A stretch of DNA of 64,000 nt from a virus (IMGVR_UViG_2585427773_000003); one strand, 5' to 3'; shown: positions 30,890-38,014, counted from the first letter of the stretch. Translations and numbers: made by a program. Notes: generated by a model not told the origin, from the sequence alone.

Positions 30890-32142
30890 CGAGAACCACC
30901 AAGAATAACACGGTTTTTGACTGGATACCTACGATGTACTGGATAGCCCAATGCGTCTGCACTATGCTCAATGCCACCTGTCTTATCCATATCTCGTGTT
31001 CCAGGCTTGTAGATGACTTTTTCCAGTGAATCAATCAAATGCTTGCACTTCGGATCGATATACAGCCGGATATCTCCAGATGCGGACATCAGCATTCGGT
31101 TAACAGCATTAACACGATCCGCAATTGGCGGGTGCTTTTTCGAATAATCGACACGTAAGAATCCCTTCTCTTTGAATATGTCTACGTCAGACTCCCCACG
31201 AGCATGTTGGCGATAAGCACCTGCCGGATCTGGAAATACCGTTACCTGTGATTTCCAGCGCCAGAAGCGTCTCTCAAGCTCATCACAAACTTCTGCCGTG
31301 TTAGAGGAAAAGAGCACCAATTCATCAATTGCCCATAGCTCACCATTTGGCTGAGGTTGCAAAATTACTGAAGACATCGGGTCAATGTTGAAGTCCTGCC
31401 CTACCCATATAGGCAACCGAGGGTTGAACTGAAGCGGTTTTACATGCACGTTACGATCGAACGGGTAGTAAACGCGCCCGGACATGTTCTCAAAGCTGGC
31501 CAGGTACTCCTGAGCGAACGATTTGGGGTCCATATCGTTCTTAGCAGCTTCAATTTCCGCCGTAGGCACAAACGGAGAATCGGCAGTTACAAACTGCCAG
31601 CTCTTCCACTGTCCCTTTCTTTGCAGCTCTACGTTCTGGCCTATAGTCCACAGTTTGTGAAATTCCGAGAAGCCTTTTGGCGTACCAATGATCAGTGCAC
31701 CGCCGCGTGTCGATGAAAGAGTAGGTCGTAACACCTTGTACCAGGTGTCAGCCTTCATATCCTGAAATTCATCAAGCACTACAAAATGCAACGCTACGCC
31801 GCGCAGAGTGTCAGGCTTATCAGCACCTTTGAGGGCGATCTCCGAACCGTTCTTCAACACGATTGTCATCGTGGTGTCGTTCTTTTTCCTAACCCACTTA
31901 CGAGGCAGAACTTCCTGTAGATCGTCCCACAAAATCTGGCGAGCCATCTGGTAAGTAGGAGCGACATACCAGACCCTTTGCTTTTTTTCCTTTGCCGCCG
32001 CACGAATAATAGTGGAGATCGACAACCGGGATTTTCCCCAGCGTCGACCAGCACAAACAACTTTAAATCGATGCGGAGACTGGAAGACTTTCATCTGTCC
32101 AGAATGCAGTTGCACAAGACTGAGCGAGGACGGGATTGCCAT
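30886..32142 (-). CDS. Terminase large subunit
   Basis: Walker A-like CAGRRWGKS, Walker B VLDE, C-terminal nuclease-like region; 418 aa. Confidence 0.8.
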   Translation of the reverse strand: MAIPSSLSLVQLHSGQMKVFQSPHRFKVVCAGRRWGKSRLSISTIIRAAAKEKKQRVWYVAPTYQMARQILWDDLQEVLPRKWVRKKNDTTMTIVLKNGSEIALKGADKPDTLRGVALHFVVLDEFQDMKADTWYKVLRPTLSSTRGGALIIGTPKGFSEFHKLWTIGQNVELQRKGQWKSWQFVTADSPFVPTAEIEAAKNDMDPKSFAQEYLASFENMSGRVYYPFDRNVHVKPLQFNPRLPIWVGQDFNIDPMSSVILQPQPNGELWAIDELVLFSSNTAEVCDELERRFWRWKSQVTVFPDPAGAYRQHARGESDVDIFKEKGFLRVDYSKKHPPIADRVNAVNRMLMSASGDIRLYIDPKCKHLIDSLEKVIYKPGTRDMDKTGGIEHSADALGYPVHRRYPVKNRVILGGSR

Positions 32143-32774
32143 TATTCGTCCTCCCCTTCACTTCCATCATCTGTCGCATCAAATTCGCTTAGAGCTTCTT
32201 CTTCCAACGTCTCAAGCAATTCGTCATCGATGATTTCAGGCTCGTCGTCTTCCTGACGTAATTTCGCCACCTGGGAAGGCGTAAGCTCACCAAATACCAG
32301 GTTCGGAATTTCTTCCTCGTCATTTTCCGCATGATCCATGCCCAATGCTTTGGACGAAACTTCAAAGCATTTTGCAAGGGTATTACTGGCTCTCTGTAAG
32401 CTCTTGAGAGAATCCTCAATCGCCCCTAAAGGCTTACCCTCACGTTTGGCCGTAGTGACTTCGACCATCACCATCTGCCCCAACGCATACGCCCAGCCGT
32501 CATAACGTGTACGACGTTCTTCTATCTTTTCCGCACGGGCTTTAGCGCGAAGCTCTGCGTCAGATTTAAGAGACTCACGAACCATCTTCCCAACAGAGTC
32601 CGCGCCTTTCTCTAATCCTCGCTTTTTGAAATGTCTGGAGAGTGTTTCACGACGAATGCCGTACTCTTCCTCCAGCTTTGAGAGTGTATATTCGCCTGAC
32701 GTCCATTTGGCTTCAGCTTCGGCCCACTCCGCTGGTGTCAGGCGAGTTTTTACCTCGTCTTTTTCGACCGTCAT
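32142..32774 (-). CDS. Terminase small subunit
   Basis: 210 aa, HTH-like N-terminus, acidic C-terminus, start overlaps terL. Confidence 0.6.
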   Translation of the reverse strand: MTVEKDEVKTRLTPAEWAEAEAKWTSGEYTLSKLEEEYGIRRETLSRHFKKRGLEKGADSVGKMVRESLKSDAELRAKARAEKIEERRTRYDGWAYALGQMVMVEVTTAKREGKPLGAIEDSLKSLQRASNTLAKCFEVSSKALGMDHAENDEEEIPNLVFGELTPSQVAKLRQEDDEPEIIDDELLETLEEEALSEFDATDDGSEGEDE

Positions 32775-32890
32775 AGATCCCTCTAAAACACACAGAGCGC
32801 GTCCATGCGCTCTAAAACAACTTGTTTACTGCATCTGCTAACCAACTTGTTTTCTGGGGTGTTTAATTAGGTCTGGCATGTCTTACGAAG

Positions 32891-32945
32891 CCTGCTTCCG
32901 TATATATTTAATAAGTTACTTATTATTTATATATACAGAAGCAGG
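32891..32945. repeat. 55-bp imperfect palindrome, copy 2
   Basis: Near-identical to copy 1; lies 117 bp upstream of terS start. Confidence 0.9.
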
Positions 32946-32969
32946 TCTTTAAATAAGCTCCCAGACCGA

Positions 32970-33236
32970 TTACATCACCAGTAACTTCGCTTTGGCTCGA
33001 CCTAAAGTAGTTAACCCAAGAGTTCGGCGGTGATAGCGATTGTCACTGCGTTGGCGCGTATGCCCTTTCTCCACCAGCCCCTTTTTTATCAGAGCGCGAA
33101 TTGAGAACTGGATACTTTGCTTGGTTGTCTTGTACGGCAAAACTTCAAGCAATTCGTCCAGGTCAAGTAGATGACCTCGCTCATAACCGAGATTGAGCGT
33201 TTTGATGATGTCCTTTTGTTTATCGGTTAACGTCAT
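32970..33236 (-). CDS. Small putative winged-helix DNA-binding protein
   Basis: 88 aa, basic, helix-turn-helix-like segment. Confidence 0.35.
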   Translation of the reverse strand: MTLTDKQKDIIKTLNLGYERGHLLDLDELLEVLPYKTTKQSIQFSIRALIKKGLVEKGHTRQRSDNRYHRRTLGLTTLGRAKAKLLVM

Positions 33237-33245
33237 GGCAAATCC

Positions 33246-34145
33246 TTATGCCGGTAAAGCAATTTCTAACGGTTTATCCAAAGGTTGTTTGTCGAATGCC
33301 AGCAGTGGCAGCGTGTCAGGCAGTCGACGACCAAAGTCAGGGTTTCGATACACACCATACAACGGAGACGTAAAGCTCAGGTTGTGAATGTCCTTGAGCA
33401 GCTTCACAATGCTGGCCTCGTCCACCAGACTGTCGGCAATGTCCTGAATCGTCGTGCCACGATTCCGCCCAGCTTTTGCCAGGGAACTGTTCTTGTGGTA
33501 GTCCGCCACCAGATCACGCAGTGCACGGCGACGACGAGACTCGCTCATAGCGAACAACTCTTTGACGATCGCCTCGTTATCACCCGGGTCGGAGCGGAAA
33601 TGGCGCTGGAACACACGCAGTGCACTTTCATAGCTCTTCGGTCGCTCAGGGCGGATGAACTTAAACCCTGCTTTCATGGCGAAGGGATTGTATTTGCTCA
33701 TCGATGACTGGATCTCAATGATTGGCCGGTCATGCATCCTGCTAACCAGGTTAATCATTCGATAAGAGACGCCTACGCCACGGTACTGAGTATCCACAAC
33801 TGAGCGGCTGATCACCGCAAAGTTGTTATTCACGTACCGGCCCCAGTACTGGTTAGCCACGGTGGTATTGGTAGTTGGTTTCAACTTAGGAAACATGCGA
33901 TGGCGAGGTGCCAGCAGAAGTTTCGGGTAAGCCATAACCACGACGCCCACCAGACGGTCATCCAGTTCGCAGCGATAGTATGTTGGCGCGAAAGGTTTGC
34001 CGTCTGTTTTGTAGTGAAGCGATTTAAGAGCGTGCCAGTCCTCTACAGTTCCCTTTGTGACAGTCATTCGCTCCAGAAAGTCCAGATGACGCGGAAACTC
34101 TTCAGGGCGGTAGCGTTTGATGATGATATCTGCCATGTCGATCAC
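33246..34145 (-). CDS. GNAT-fold (acetyltransferase-like) domain protein
   Basis: Motif QYRGVGVS (R/Q-x-x-G-x-G/A) preceded by hydrophobic strand, NPFAMKAGFKFI downstream; about 120 aa C-terminal extension. Confidence 0.45.
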   Translation of the reverse strand: MIDMADIIIKRYRPEEFPRHLDFLERMTVTKGTVEDWHALKSLHYKTDGKPFAPTYYRCELDDRLVGVVVMAYPKLLLAPRHRMFPKLKPTTNTTVANQYWGRYVNNNFAVISRSVVDTQYRGVGVSYRMINLVSRMHDRPIIEIQSSMSKYNPFAMKAGFKFIRPERPKSYESALRVFQRHFRSDPGDNEAIVKELFAMSESRRRRALRDLVADYHKNSSLAKAGRNRGTTIQDIADSLVDEASIVKLLKDIHNLSFTSPLYGVYRNPDFGRRLPDTLPLLAFDKQPLDKPLEIALPA

Positions 34146-34396
34146 CTGCGCTCGATATTGGCATTGATGAAATCCAGGCGAAGAGACTCCATCGCCCCTA
34201 CCATGACATACGGGCGCCCGCCGTTATGCCAGCAATCAAGAACACTGCCGTCGTTGTTGATCATCAACAGCGCCAGGCTCTGGCTTTTTCCTTCTCTGGC
34301 GTGCTGAAGTGCTTCTTCCAGCAGGCGGATGACTTCCACGTTGTTGTTATCAGTCTCTTTCGATGGCTTCAGCTCTACGATCTTCAAATCAGGCAT
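34142..34396 (-). CDS. Hypothetical protein
   Basis: 84 aa ORF with overlapping start/stop coupling to neighbours. Confidence 0.4.
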   Translation of the reverse strand: MPDLKIVELKPSKETDNNNVEVIRLLEEALQHAREGKSQSLALLMINNDGSVLDCWHNGGRPYVMVGAMESLRLDFINANIERR

Positions 34397-35027
34397 ATTC
34401 CACCTTCACGCGTTCTTTGTAGTGCTTGGTGATCTGCATATCCGGGCGCAGCGCGTTCTTCAGGTCTTCGTGAGTCGTCGCCACCATTACCGTCGCACCA
34501 ACCTTTCGAGCGGCACGCTGGAGGTTAGATGCCACAACCTGAGCGGTTACACGGTCGAGAACAGCGCCGAACTCGTCAGCAGCCCACACTTTAGCGCCTG
34601 ACTCAATCAGTTTGGCAATCTTGAGACGATATTTCTGACCGTCTGACATTTCAGAAGGCTTGCGAACAAACAGATATGCATCGTTCAGACCAGCCATAGA
34701 TAACAACCCAAGCGCATCACTGGTAGTTTTGCCCAGTTGGTCAATGACGTTAACCTCATTATCGAAGGTAAAATCATCGATGGAGGCCACAGATAGCCCT
34801 TCATCCTTCATCTGGTGTTGCAGCTCGCGCAGCACAACGGATTTGCCGGAACCGGATTGGCCGGTAATGTACACCACATCGCCCTGCTTCACTTCCAGCT
34901 CCAGATTGTCGTAAAGCGTCCACTCTTTTTCGTCCAGGCCAAGCCCGAACGACTCAGCGATTTCCAACGTGCGCGTGGTTTTATTTACGCGTGTCTGAAA
35001 CGATACGTTGATGATGTATTTGCTCAT
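34389..35027 (-). CDS. Compact ABC-type ATPase
   Basis: Walker A GQSGSGKS, ABC signature LSDGQKYRL, Walker B VWAADEFGAVLD, H-loop ATTHE; 212 aa. Confidence 0.7.
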   Translation of the reverse strand: MSKYIINVSFQTRVNKTTRTLEIAESFGLGLDEKEWTLYDNLELEVKQGDVVYITGQSGSGKSVVLRELQHQMKDEGLSVASIDDFTFDNEVNVIDQLGKTTSDALGLLSMAGLNDAYLFVRKPSEMSDGQKYRLKIAKLIESGAKVWAADEFGAVLDRVTAQVVASNLQRAARKVGATVMVATTHEDLKNALRPDMQITKHYKERVKVEYA

Positions 35028-35692
35028 GCAGCCATCTCCCCGGAAGAGATCTTCTCCGCATATGCCACAAATGCGTCTACCCCGCTTTCTCCCGTCATTT
35101 CTTCCATGTGGGCAAGCAAATCACCAACAACAATGGCAGAGCCAGCAGGGAGCGTTTTAAAGCCCAATACGTCGACAACACGTACTTCTTCCGCTGCAAC
35201 TTCACGACTGATCTCGGTGTGTTCATCCTTCTGTCGTTTAGTTTCTTCGCCAAGATCGATAACTAGCGAGTCGGTGTCCATTTCTTCTGTCATACTGCCA
35301 ACGAGAACATTCAACTCACGCTCTTCAAAGCCGAAAACCTCGATATCGTCCAGAACAAGCGACTCAAGCTCTTTCTGTAGCTTAATTGCATCGTAATCAA
35401 TGCTGGCAAGTCGGTTATCTTCAAGGCGCTTCGCACGAACCTCGTCATCACTGAGATCATCGCGAACAATAACCGGTACGCGCTCAAGTCCAGCAAAAAT
35501 TGCAGCCTCACGGCGGCCGTGGCCAGTAATAATTACGTCGTTCTTATCGACCGTAATTGGCTGGTCAAATCCGCGCTTTTTAATGGCTGCGGCTAGATCT
35601 CGGATCTGCTGTTCATCATGCTTTTTGGCATTCATCTCATAGGGAATAAGATCTGCCGGGTCGCGATATACGATTTCAAACTTTTTGGTCAT
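35024..35692 (-). CDS. ParB-like nuclease domain protein
   Basis: ParB N-terminal motif ITGHGRREAAIFAGLERVPVIV. Confidence 0.55.
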   Translation of the reverse strand: MTKKFEIVYRDPADLIPYEMNAKKHDEQQIRDLAAAIKKRGFDQPITVDKNDVIITGHGRREAAIFAGLERVPVIVRDDLSDDEVRAKRLEDNRLASIDYDAIKLQKELESLVLDDIEVFGFEERELNVLVGSMTEEMDTDSLVIDLGEETKRQKDEHTEISREVAAEEVRVVDVLGFKTLPAGSAIVVGDLLAHMEEMTGESGVDAFVAYAEKISSGEMAA

Positions 35693-36372
35693 TACATACG
35701 CTCCTTGTAGTAGTCGACCAGCCATACCAGAGCCTCACCAGCGTTCTCCATTTCATTACCGGTGTTAATAGCCTGCTCTTTGATGATGTTTTTTATGGTT
35801 TCTGCAACACGATCTGACGCATCGAAAGTTACTTTGAAGCGCATGGTCTGATGTTCCGCACCCACACGTTCGGTTTTCTCTCGTTTGTCGGTATCGACAG
35901 GCTCATCACTACCACGAGACAACGCCTCCAGTGCTTCAAGGTCGATTGCCGCCTCTTTTGCTAAAACCATCGAGATTTCGTCGTCATACGGGGCGATTTC
36001 AGACAGTTGATAGTCAAGTTCTGACTGAATTTCTTCAATGAAGCGTTGCAATGCGATTTGGTCGTCTTCACCGTATCGCTCGTTGTCCACCAGTGACATC
36101 TGTTTAGCTACGACATCGCTAATTTTGCCCACAGAAAGCACCGGAACCGTTGAAATTCCTTGCTCAATAGCAGCACGCCAGCGATGTTCGCCGCCGAGGA
36201 TTTCAAAAAATCCATCTTCAAGTTCACGAGCCAAAATTGGCTTAAAAAAGCCCAATTTTTCGATAGAACCTTTCAGTTTTTCAAAATTCTGCGCACCAAC
36301 CGAATTGGTGTTCCAGGTATTCGGGCGAAGGTTGGCAACATCAACCTGCAAAATCGTGATTTTTACATCCAT
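35692..36372 (-). CDS. ParB-like nuclease domain protein
   Basis: ParB N-terminal motif ILGGEHRWRAAIEQGISTVPVL; ATG at 36372 preferred over GTG at 36390. Confidence 0.55.
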   Translation of the reverse strand: MDVKITILQVDVANLRPNTWNTNSVGAQNFEKLKGSIEKLGFFKPILARELEDGFFEILGGEHRWRAAIEQGISTVPVLSVGKISDVVAKQMSLVDNERYGEDDQIALQRFIEEIQSELDYQLSEIAPYDDEISMVLAKEAAIDLEALEALSRGSDEPVDTDKREKTERVGAEHQTMRFKVTFDASDRVAETIKNIIKEQAINTGNEMENAGEALVWLVDYYKERM

Positions 36373-36390
36373 TTTATTGCTACAATCCAC

Positions 36391-36408
36391 TAAGTAATCA
36401 CTTACTTA
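36391..36408. promoter_or_regulatory. Palindrome TAAGTAAtcacTTACTTA in divergent promoter region
   Basis: Perfect 7-bp arms, between ParB-like gene (minus) and helicase (plus). Confidence 0.45.
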
Positions 36409-36454
36409 TTATAATAGCCAAATAACATACAAAAGGCACTAAGGAAAGAGGTTT

Positions 36455-38014
36455 ATGACTGTTCGGATTGTATCTAACGCAGTAAATGCGCTTATTTCTG
36501 GCGCAGATGACAAGGTAAAGCAACTGGTGCAGCAAATGTTGAGCTACGAAGTCGAGACTGGCGACTGGAAGGGCACAAGCACGATGTTCAACTGGAGTAA
36601 AAACTCGTTCCCTGCTGGCTTTGCCAAGCCTGTAGCGGCGAACTTGAACAAGGCGGGCATCAAATGTGTTCATATCCGCAAAGACAAAGCCCCGGCGCTT
36701 GGTAAACCAAATCCGGCGGTTAACCCATTCCCATACAATCCTGATTATGCGTATCAGGATCAGACTGTGGAAACACTGGTTCGAGAGGGAATGATGATTG
36801 CGCAGATCGCTACTGGTGGCGGGAAATCTAACGTTGCCTGCAAAGCAGCTGCACGTATCGGTCGAATGACATTATTTTTAACAACCCGCTCTGTTCTGAT
36901 GTTTCAAATGGCCGAAAACTTCCAGAGATCCATCGACTACCGCGCCGAAAATGGCGAACCGTGGTTAAAGGGCCAAAAGGTTGGAGTCATTGGCTCGGGG
37001 GAGTTCCAGGTATCACGACATATCAACGTCGCTACAGTTCAAACTCTGGCAAGTTTCCTTGAAGAACCACCACGCGATGCAACACCAGATAAAAAGAGCT
37101 ACCATCTCAAACGTCGGGAGTTGGTGAAACGCTTCCTTTCAAGTGTGTCTCTGCTTATTCTGGAAGAAGCGCATGAGTCTTCAGGCTCTAATTTCTATGA
37201 CATTGCCAGATTATGTGTGAACGCAGACTATCGTCTGGCGCTTACAGCCACGCCGTTCATGAAGGATTCGACGGAAGCCAACATGCGCCTGATGGCGGTG
37301 GCCGGGCGAATTGAAATTAAAGTCACAGAAAAGTACCTGATTGATCGAGGCATTCTGGCAAAGCCGTACTTCCTTTATCATAAAGTTGCCTACAAGCCAG
37401 ACGAGGCCAGAATCAAGGCCGAACTTGCCAACAAACACCTCAATTTTAGAGTTGGTATGAGCACCGCCTACCAAAAGGCTTATCAGTTGGGGATCGTGTA
37501 TAATTTGGGACGTAACGAGGCCATAGTGCGCGAGGCATTGCTTTATAAGCAACATTCACTCAACTGCATGACTCTGGTTCGTCTTAAACGCCACGGGCAA
37601 ATCCTGATGGAGATGATGAAGGAGTCAGGTCTTAAAGTTGATTTCATCTATGGGGAATCTAACCAGACGACAAGGCAAGCAAAGCTGAATAGTTTAGCGT
37701 CTGGTGAAATAGATGTTTTAATAGGCTCGACTATTCTGGATGTTGGTGTTGATGTGCCAAGCGTTGGTGCGGTCATTCTTGCTGGTGGTGGGAAAGCAGA
37801 AGTTGAAATGAGACAGCGTGTCGGTCGTGGCTTACGAGCCAAAAAAAATCAGGCAAACGTGTGTTTTATCACTGATTTCATTGACATTAGCAACAAATAC
37901 CTGTTGTCTCACTCTTATGAGCGAAAACACATCATCGACACCACACCTGGCTTTGCAGAAGGTGTATTGCCTATTGATGGAGCATTCGATTTTGGAGTTC
38001 TGAAACGAGATTAG
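36455..38014 (+). CDS. SF2 (DEAD/DEAH-type) helicase
   Basis: Walker A ATGGGKS, LEEAHE (motif II), TATP (motif III), QRVGRGLR (motif VI); RBS aaggaaagagg. Confidence 0.75.
   Translation: MTVRIVSNAVNALISGADDKVKQLVQQMLSYEVETGDWKGTSTMFNWSKNSFPAGFAKPVAANLNKAGIKCVHIRKDKAPALGKPNPAVNPFPYNPDYAYQDQTVETLVREGMMIAQIATGGGKSNVACKAAARIGRMTLFLTTRSVLMFQMAENFQRSIDYRAENGEPWLKGQKVGVIGSGEFQVSRHINVATVQTLASFLEEPPRDATPDKKSYHLKRRELVKRFLSSVSLLILEEAHESSGSNFYDIARLCVNADYRLALTATPFMKDSTEANMRLMAVAGRIEIKVTEKYLIDRGILAKPYFLYHKVAYKPDEARIKAELANKHLNFRVGMSTAYQKAYQLGIVYNLGRNEAIVREALLYKQHSLNCMTLVRLKRHGQILMEMMKESGLKVDFIYGESNQTTRQAKLNSLASGEIDVLIGSTILDVGVDVPSVGAVILAGGGKAEVEMRQRVGRGLRAKKNQANVCFITDFIDISNKYLLSHSYERKHIIDTTPGFAEGVLPIDGAFDFGVLKRD

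Follow-up and report, generated by a model that had tools for sequence, protein, structure and literature searches.

We analysed a gene cluster in the viral sequence IMGVR_UViG_2585427773_000003, a stretch of 64,000 nucleotides (nt) referred to here in its entirety as the window, in which six minus-strand open reading frames (ORFs) encode, in order of transcription, two proteins with a ParB/Srx N-terminal domain (ParB1 and ParB2), a small ABC ATPase, an 84-amino acid (aa) protein, a GNAT-fold acyltransferase and a small winged helix-turn-helix (wHTH) protein, with the terminase genes terS and terL downstream. All six ORFs, proposed in a first-pass annotation of the sequence, were found where it had placed them (Table 1). 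The region from 32100 to 36450 is 100% identical to Escherichia phage CMS-2020a, 98% identical to PhiR41_1 and Cyrano (pLF82 phage-plasmid) and 86% identical to Salmonella phage SSU5, and because of these identities the window is assigned to an SSU5-like phage-plasmid of E. coli. Negative GC skew extends from ~4 kb to 36 kb, which fits a long minus-strand block of packaging and structural genes that starts with the cluster.

Table 1. Position and support of the genes, junctions and neighbours discussed in the text (window coordinates, except for the ASCH-domain neighbours, which are listed by their own loci)
Feature	Position	Strand	Details
SF2 (UvsW-like) helicase	36455..38014	+	PF00270, PF04851, PF00271; divergent, other flank of the module
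ParB1, ParB/Srx N-terminal-domain protein	35692..36390	-	PF02195 49.9 bits; phrog_723 E-value 2e-79
ParB1/ParB2 junction			TAATG, 1-nt overlap
ParB2, ParB/Srx N-terminal-domain protein	35024..35692	-	PF02195 35 bits; phrog_930 E-value 1e-112; also phrog_620, phrog_498
ParB2/ABC junction			ATGA overlap
Minimal soluble ABC ATPase (nucleotide-binding domain only), 212 aa	34389..35027	-	PF00005 50 bits (cut-off 25); phrog_293 E-value 7e-58
ABC/84-aa ORF junction			8-nt overlap
84-aa ORF	34142..34396	-	phrog_796
84-aa ORF/GNAT junction			GTGA overlap, or 5-nt gap if GNAT starts at ATG 34136
Basic GNAT-fold acyltransferase, 296-299 aa (probable ATG 34136)	33246..34145	-	acyl-coenzyme A (acyl-CoA) loop YRGVGVS; phrog_886
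GNAT/wHTH junction			9-nt gap
Minimal winged-helix (MarR-like fold) DNA-binding protein (wHTH), 88 aa	32970..33236	-	three-helix bundle and β-hairpin wing
Gap between wHTH and terS, 195 nt	32775..32969
terS, probable small terminase subunit, 210 aa	32142..32774	-	phrog_867 E-value 2e-100; downstream neighbour of the module
terL, large terminase subunit, Terminase_6N type, 418 aa	30886..32142	-	PF03237 37.2 bits; phrog_2, phrog_10250
ASCH-domain neighbours in homologous loci	L100, L106, L118, L126, L146, L147, L154, L155, L160, L163, L164, L168; L095 6089-6466; L093 10558-10818

Proteins encoded by the cluster

The ABC protein carries a complete set of ATPase motifs (Walker A GQSGSGKS at residues 56-63, signature MSDGQ at 127-131, Walker B VWAADE at 147-152 and H-loop H186) and is homologous to the N-terminal half of ABC-GNAT fusion proteins. 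The acyltransferase shows the α/β fold of GNAT enzymes, and Mom of phage Mu, a DNA-modifying GNAT, is among its fold matches. Its acyl-CoA pyrophosphate loop (consensus R/Q-x-x-G-x-G/A) reads R122-G-V-G125-V-S, with R122 and G125 invariant in 31 homologues, and the equivalent loop in the fusions is RGIGLG; H44, Y45, R114, E144, M149 and Y263 are likewise invariant from E. coli phage-plasmids to archaeal proviruses. What had been described as a C-terminal extension of the GNAT fold is instead a helical insertion of ~90 aa (residues 172-258) between helix α4 and the last two strands, β6 and β7 (262-267 and 278-280), which complete the sheet after the insertion; Y263, invariant family-wide, lies in the first of them. 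The protein is unusually basic, with an isoelectric point (pI) of 9.8 and a core net charge of +11 (family mean +9.6). The window GNAT had no match in Pfam, the homologous fusions P0240, PX29 gp85 and Jace gp86 exceed the Acetyltransf_1 cut-off, and the GNAT-family profile matched no sequence in the PDB. A scan against NCBIfam returned generic ABC and ParB matches only, every one of them under its cut-off.

Both ParB-like proteins score above the PF02195 cut-off and hold the G-x-x-R nucleoside triphosphate (NTP)-binding motif (GGEHRWRAA in ParB1, GHGRREAA in ParB2). The longest ORF of ParB1 encodes 232 aa from a GTG codon, and the start is probably the ATG at 36372 (226 aa), based on the PhiR41_1 annotation; ParB2 starts at M12 of its longest ORF (position 35692), giving 222 aa, with an AAGGAG Shine-Dalgarno sequence and an overlap with the ParB1 stop. 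ParB2 is the paralogue nearest the ParB domain of ParB-ABC-GNAT fusions, three of which (P0219, P0196 and P0221) match phrog_620 and phrog_498 with their N-termini. Both proteins are strongly acidic (pI ~4.5; 4.55 for ParB1), and their C-terminal halves have a net charge of -14 in ParB1 and -20 in ParB2; these acidic tails might bind or mask the basic GNAT and wHTH partners rather than DNA. Beyond the PF02195 domain that they share with the ParB of ParABS systems, the two differ from it in that the cluster holds no ParA gene, no HTH_ParB was detected in either protein by Pfam scan, a dimerisation domain was likewise not detected, and the genes are part of the late/packaging block. Together with the acidic C-terminal halves and a score against the partition model TIGR00180 that stays under the cut-off for both proteins (43 bits versus 58), this led us to reject a plasmid partition ParB.

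The genes are tightly packed, neighbouring ones overlapping by up to 8 nt or standing up to 9 nt apart, and the terS stop and the terL start have one base in common. Overlapping stop and start codons, previously ascribed to the whole cluster, occur at several junctions and not between GNAT and wHTH.

Domain fusions and conserved neighbourhoods

Gene order that is kept within a single phage lineage is little proof of a module. A first scan of viral contigs gave close SSU5-like relatives only and was uninformative as to whether the genes occur independently; it was followed by a GNAT-family profile search over 1.84 billion representative proteins, which yielded 971 relatives, and by a scan with an ABC-GNAT fusion alignment, which retrieved 80 viral contigs, 76 of them with an intact fusion ORF. 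According to Pfam and PHROG scans, many GNAT relatives are longer chains in which the GNAT region is C-terminal, either as ABC-GNAT fusions of ~450-500 aa or as ParB-ABC-GNAT fusions of ~665-700 aa (P0196, P0219, P0221 and P0243) whose domain order is the gene order of the window. The fusions were recovered at E-values of 1e-15 to 1e-28 and match phrog_293 and phrog_886, the families of the window ABC and GNAT proteins; the window holds a split variant in which the two are separate genes with the 84-aa ORF between them. Further domains are joined to the pair in other relatives: DNA polymerase B (PolB) in P0175 and in P0190, a single 1260-aa PolB-ABC-GNAT ORF (L158 and L161, 3580-7362), Gins51_C in P0184 (65 bits) and a TFIIB repeat that follows ABC-GNAT in P0155. 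Uninterrupted fusion ORFs were present on independent contigs (L087, L088, L158 and L161).

Relatives whose GNAT is ~45% identical to that of the window, from Ectothiorhodospira and Piscirickettsiaceae genomes and one metagenomic contig, retain the full gene order, namely a divergent helicase, ParB, ParB, ABC, two to three variable small ORFs, GNAT, an ORF of 83-96 aa, a gap, terS, terL and portal. The fusions and this conserved neighbourhood show that ParB, ABC and GNAT are functionally linked and form one unit. The coupling of these three that the first-pass annotation had pointed out is thus borne out by conserved co-occurrence and domain fusion, the opposite of packaging or partition genes that occur independently; its grouping of all six genes as one unit is not, since the 84-aa ORF is a variable insertion and the wHTH family was found only in SSU5-like relatives. 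A transporter subunit was rejected: the ABC protein does have the nucleotide-binding domain of such subunits, including the Walker A, signature, Walker B and H-loop motifs, but there is no permease or substrate-binding gene in the cluster or its conserved neighbourhood and the relatives are fused to GNAT, ParB, PolB and GINS domains.

Linkage to the terminase genes recurs in other settings. In a phage whose portal belongs to a different family, terS and terL directly follow the triple fusion P0219, Pasteurella phage Pmp13 has the order ParB, ABC-GNAT fusion, terS, terL, Gordonia Sourvirus genomes have ParB (gp1), ABC-GNAT (gp2), gp3 and terminase (gp4), and in Streptococcus pyogenes prophage 315.4 the terminase comes after ParB, ABC and an ASCH protein. 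Among the 76 viral contigs with an intact fusion, a terL homologue ends a few bases before the fusion start in about 60 and follows the fusion in three. A scan of species genomes placed that fusion clade in Archaea (Nitrososphaerota, Bathyarchaeia and Caldarchaeales), with terL immediately upstream at 43 of 77 archaeal loci, 13 loci having no room upstream; ParB is missing from this large archaeal clade. The module also stands among replication genes, as in Nonlabens phage P12024S (where primase and helicase genes flank it), Tenacibaculum phage pT24, Aeromonas phage PX29 and Arthrobacter phage EastWest. Altogether, its hosts comprise phages of Proteobacteria, Actinobacteria, Firmicutes, Bacteroidetes and spirochaetes and proviruses in Thermoproteota (Nitrososphaeria, Bathyarchaeia).

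Three kinds of neighbour bear on function. Genes for Pfam-verified ASCH domains (PF04266) lie convergent and just 3' of the fusion at 11 of the 53 archaeal loci with room for one, and ASCH genes were also found in prophage 315.4 and in L093; in archaeal proviruses they usually overlap the 3' end of ABC-GNAT, and in 315.4 the gene is on the same strand. In the Rhodococcus/Gordonia phage Jace, gp85 to gp88 (L180 3417-6182) encode ParB, ABC-GNAT, the aspartate 1-decarboxylase PanD (115 bits) and a fragment of a family III CoA-transferase (34 bits), a row that suggests a phage route from aspartate to a β-alanine-derived CoA thioester for the GNAT, or a boost to the CoA supply. The Sourvirus gp3 between fusion and terminase (Mariokart, L094 1799-2446; BiggityBass, L262 1823-2473) matches Formyl_trans_N at 34.8 bits; it is annotated as a 'tRNA-methyltransferase' in BiggityBass, and no small terminase is annotated at that position in Mariokart or BiggityBass.

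Some members of the family are unusual or incompletely annotated. P0169 (847 aa) contains an intein with a LAGLIDADG endonuclease within its ABC domain. The ~900-aa fusions P0240 and P0194 begin with a large region (residues 1-440 and 1-415, respectively) that has no Pfam or PHROG match, and tandem ParB domains were rejected for it (hhalign probability 0.1%). In Pseudoalteromonas phage SL25, ~2 kb directly upstream of terL that are unannotated in GenBank (L263 3233-5276) encode an ABC-GNAT homologue. In prophage 315.4 (L095 4959-6028), only the ABC half is annotated intact (225 aa) and a tblastn match to P0219 continues into another ORF, of 89 aa; streptococcal prophages of this type may have a truncated or decayed GNAT half.

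Predicted DNA acylation and alternative functions

The first-pass annotation had not recognised the module, yet the pair of ABC ATPase and GNAT is already catalogued as COG2401 ('MK0520, ABC-type ATPase fused to a predicted acetyltransferase domain') and Aravind's group has predicted that it adds an acyl group to a DNA base (Iyer, Zhang, Burroughs and Aravind, NAR 2013, cited after Iyer et al. 2021, PMC7824862, where Tenacibaculum phage pT24 is given as an example). Phage pT24 is also among our homologue matches. The window locus resembles this system in that both catalytic domains are homologous, the setting is a phage or provirus and the role predicted for COG2401 is the best-supported reading here; it differs in its separate ABC and GNAT genes, the variable ORF between them, the two ParB paralogues and the lineage-restricted wHTH. 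Its kind is already known as a prediction, to which the window adds a member with split genes, two ParB paralogues and a wHTH. The terminase linkage across bacterial and archaeal viruses, the ParB, PolB, GINS and TFIIB fusions and the ASCH, PanD/CoA-transferase and formyltransferase-like neighbours may exceed the published account, the 2013 paper being known to us through the later summary. The module is ancient and widespread, and nearly all of its annotations wrongly name an ABC transporter or a partition protein.

We favour, at a probability of roughly 45%, a reading in which ParB1, ParB2, ABC and GNAT would use ATP and acyl-CoA to modify phage DNA at a late stage, before it is packaged, to the phage's benefit against restriction. 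Of the three roles first suggested for the cluster (packaging accessory, anti-defence or DNA modification), the last is the best supported, and a non-covalent packaging accessory ranks lower. We infer a DNA base as the substrate, along with the chemistry, timing and anti-restriction role: DNA because every fused or adjacent partner handles DNA, and action before packaging because the genes head the packaging/structural block. An N-acylated base is hinted at as the product because the ASCH family has N4-acylcytosine amidohydrolase and N4-acetylcytidine (ac4C)-eraser activity, its members including N4-acylcytosine amidohydrolases and reported erasers of tRNA ac4C (bioRxiv 10.64898/2026.02.27.708502), and a supply of acyl-CoA donor would fit because a CoA-transferase and a β-alanine-forming decarboxylase stand beside the fusion in Jace.

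In the mechanism that we propose, the basic GNAT would move an acyl group from acyl-CoA, in the window phage presumably host acetyl-CoA, onto a DNA base, at an exocyclic amine. Through ATP-driven dimerisation, the minimal ABC ATPase, which in most relatives is part of the same chain as the GNAT, would engage the DNA or present the target base. The ParB/Srx proteins would, in an NTP-dependent manner, load the enzyme onto DNA or regulate it there, as ParB-like partners do for other DNA modifiers. Replicated DNA would receive the mark shortly ahead of packaging or while it proceeds, and would thereby escape restriction once the next host is entered; the 88-aa wHTH would be a DNA-binding accessory or regulator, seen only in the SSU5-like lineage. 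A more specific version, which we offer tentatively as possible and not as probable, is that the module places on viral DNA, at the hand-over to terminase, an undescribed acyl mark such as N4-acyl-cytosine or N6-acyl-adenine, with acetyl-CoA as donor in SSU5-like phages and a custom donor elsewhere, such as a β-alanine-derived CoA thioester, and with ASCH proteins as readers or erasers.

The proposed division of labour has partial parallels. A ParB-like partner is required by phage thymidine dioxygenases (5mYOX), whose operons hold terminases in 19% of cases (PMC13229309), and the ParB-like ATPase DpdB supports DpdA in the insertion of 7-deazaguanine (PMC12839542). Like the window cluster, both systems pair a ParB/Srx-family NTPase with a DNA-modifying enzyme in phage operons that often include terminase genes; unlike it, their enzymes are unrelated (a dioxygenase and a transglycosylase), no ABC ATPase takes part, and the window has two acidic-tailed ParB paralogues. 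Mom is a phage enzyme of GNAT fold as well, directed at adenine N6 of DNA, and action on DNA after replication to evade restriction is proposed here as it is for Mom, which nevertheless shows no detectable sequence relationship to the window GNAT and lacks an ABC ATPase, a ParB partner and the helical insertion. TmcA and NAT10 combine an NTPase with a GNAT and acetylate a nucleobase, giving N4-acetylcytidine in RNA, with acetyl-CoA and ATP. The NTPase-coupled GNAT logic is the same, but their ATPase is helicase-like and not an ABC domain, their substrate is RNA, and no homology was seen beyond the GNAT fold.

Several observations weigh against modification of DNA. Most GNATs have proteins or small molecules as substrates, and to our knowledge Mom is the only well-known GNAT that acts on a DNA base, matched here at the level of the fold only. 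ParB1 and ParB2 are very acidic and have no detectable HTH, so that direct DNA binding by either is not evident, and the ParB proteins of Gordonia and Rhodococcus phages are missing the conserved arginine of the NTP-binding motif. The window cluster has neither an ASCH gene nor donor-synthesis genes, an RNA substrate would also be compatible with the ASCH and formyltransferase neighbours, and shared ancestry within lineages accounts for part of the terminase adjacency. Our literature searches found no experimental study of any module member or of SSU5 DNA modification, and PADLOC models gave generic P-loop and ParB-methyltransferase N-terminal-domain matches only and no system, a result that is uninformative either way.

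Proteins bound to DNA are the alternative target that fares best, although we consider it unlikely. A GNAT that ParB and ABC tether to DNA beside the replisome or terminase would acetylate HU, H-NS or IHF in bacteria, Alba or Cren7 in archaea, or phage packaging proteins, and by stripping or tuning them would ease replication and packaging; this would match the usual activity of GNATs, and the PolB, GINS51 and TFIIB fusions and the adjacency to terminase would put the enzyme at DNA-translocating machines. The strongly basic GNAT core suits nucleic acid and not basic nucleoid proteins, however, the ASCH, aspartate decarboxylase/CoA-transferase and formyltransferase-like neighbours indicate nucleobase or custom-acyl chemistry, and no candidate substrate protein is conserved across the lineages.

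RNA, for instance tRNA, is a decidedly improbable target. An ATP-dependent acetylation in the manner of TmcA and NAT10 would adjust translation or shield tRNAs from anticodon nucleases of the host late in infection, and it can be argued from the ATPase-plus-GNAT architecture of these ac4C writers, from ASCH proteins as tRNA ac4C erasers (bioRxiv 10.64898/2026.02.27.708502), from the formyltransferase-like Sourvirus neighbour with its tRNA methyltransferase label in BiggityBass and from a basic GNAT that suits RNA as well as DNA. The fusion partners found are all DNA-replication or DNA-binding domains (ParB, PolB, GINS51, TFIIB), however, the module adjoins terminase, helicase and primase genes and not tRNA or translation genes, and its ATPase is an ABC domain and not of the TmcA helicase type.

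We give little chance, too, to a packaging accessory that modifies nothing covalently, in which the ParB/Srx proteins would provide nuclease or DNA-handling functions to the terminase (compare HNH proteins with HK97-type terminases), the ABC protein would serve to remodel DNA or to bridge it and the GNAT would have a structural or regulatory part. Such a role would account for the strong and repeated adjacency to terS and terL, for the several Sourvirus genomes that have no annotated terS beside the module and for ParB/Srx domains, which are capable of nicking and NTPase activities (PMC5512222). The invariance of the acyl-CoA loop and other GNAT residues in bacterial and archaeal members argues instead for catalysis, the large archaeal clade lacks ParB, some members stand in replication modules far from terminase, and donor-synthesis neighbours would make no sense for a non-catalytic protein. 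That the genes are unrelated neighbours, namely an ABC-transporter subunit carried as a 'moron', partition ParBs and a stray acetyltransferase, as most database labels imply (PHROG and GenBank: 'ABC transporter ATP-binding', 'ParB-like partition protein', 'chromosome partitioning protein'), is scarcely credible given an arrangement conserved across phyla and the bacterial/archaeal divide and domains joined in one chain in many relatives.

If DNA acylation is the correct reading, the module would represent a new class of DNA hypermodification common to tailed viruses of Bacteria and Archaea and present in phage-plasmids that are frequent among clinical Enterobacteriaceae, an ATP-dependent GNAT acylation of DNA that would bear on how phages and phage-plasmids evade restriction and DNA-sensing defences, and the behaviour of such DNA in sequencing and cloning would also be affected. 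SSU5-like phage-plasmids are often met with in E. coli, Klebsiella and Salmonella, in some cases with resistance genes, and at least one of them, PhiR41_1, can be grown on E. coli K-12, which makes a 13-year-old computational prediction experimentally tractable in this family.

Lineage-specific parts of the locus

The wHTH protein is strongly basic (pI 10.2) and does not belong to the MarR family proper, whose members have ~140 aa with dimerisation helices compared to its 88 aa; it had no Pfam match and only weak, sub-threshold matches in NCBIfam. A GNAT/wHTH toxin-antitoxin pair was rejected, as the pairing was found only in SSU5-like phages and the conserved partner of the GNAT is the ABC domain. 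The cluster is not contiguous with terS, although it had been placed immediately upstream: the gap that separates wHTH from terS holds an AT-rich, near-perfect palindrome of 55 bp (32891-32945), the sequence AAACAAGTTG in two copies (32814-32853) and a terminator-like hairpin (32793-32814). Because of the palindrome and the hairpin, co-transcription of the cluster with terS is uncertain. In GenBank, the linear records for SSU5 and Cyrano have their break at ~32909, within the palindrome, and in distant relatives the equivalent gap measures 275-335 nt, with a 55-nt inverted repeat in L086; the gap could be a cos/pac region, a late promoter/operator or the product of a mere shared convention for the start of records.

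The 84-aa ORF is a variable insertion and no core component, because it is missing from the close relatives PhiR41_1 and Cyrano, in which ABC and GNAT abut, and because it occurs in 39 loci compared to 86 for the wHTH. Two to three other small ORFs occupy the same slot in distant relatives, and the position of the slot is the domain boundary of the ABC-GNAT fusions; the ABC/GNAT junction of the SSU5-like lineage is a hotspot where small ORFs are inserted. The slot comprises positions 5961-6999 of L083, with Phage_gp49_66 and RyR-domain ORFs, 6515-7008 of L084 and 6431-7001 of L086. These three distant SSU5-like relatives have the same divergent helicase as the window, and beyond it lie genes of nucleotide metabolism, for a dCMP/cytidine deaminase in L083 (108-569) and L086 (1292-1831) and for a protein with an HD_4 domain (HD phosphohydrolase) in L084 (778-1296).

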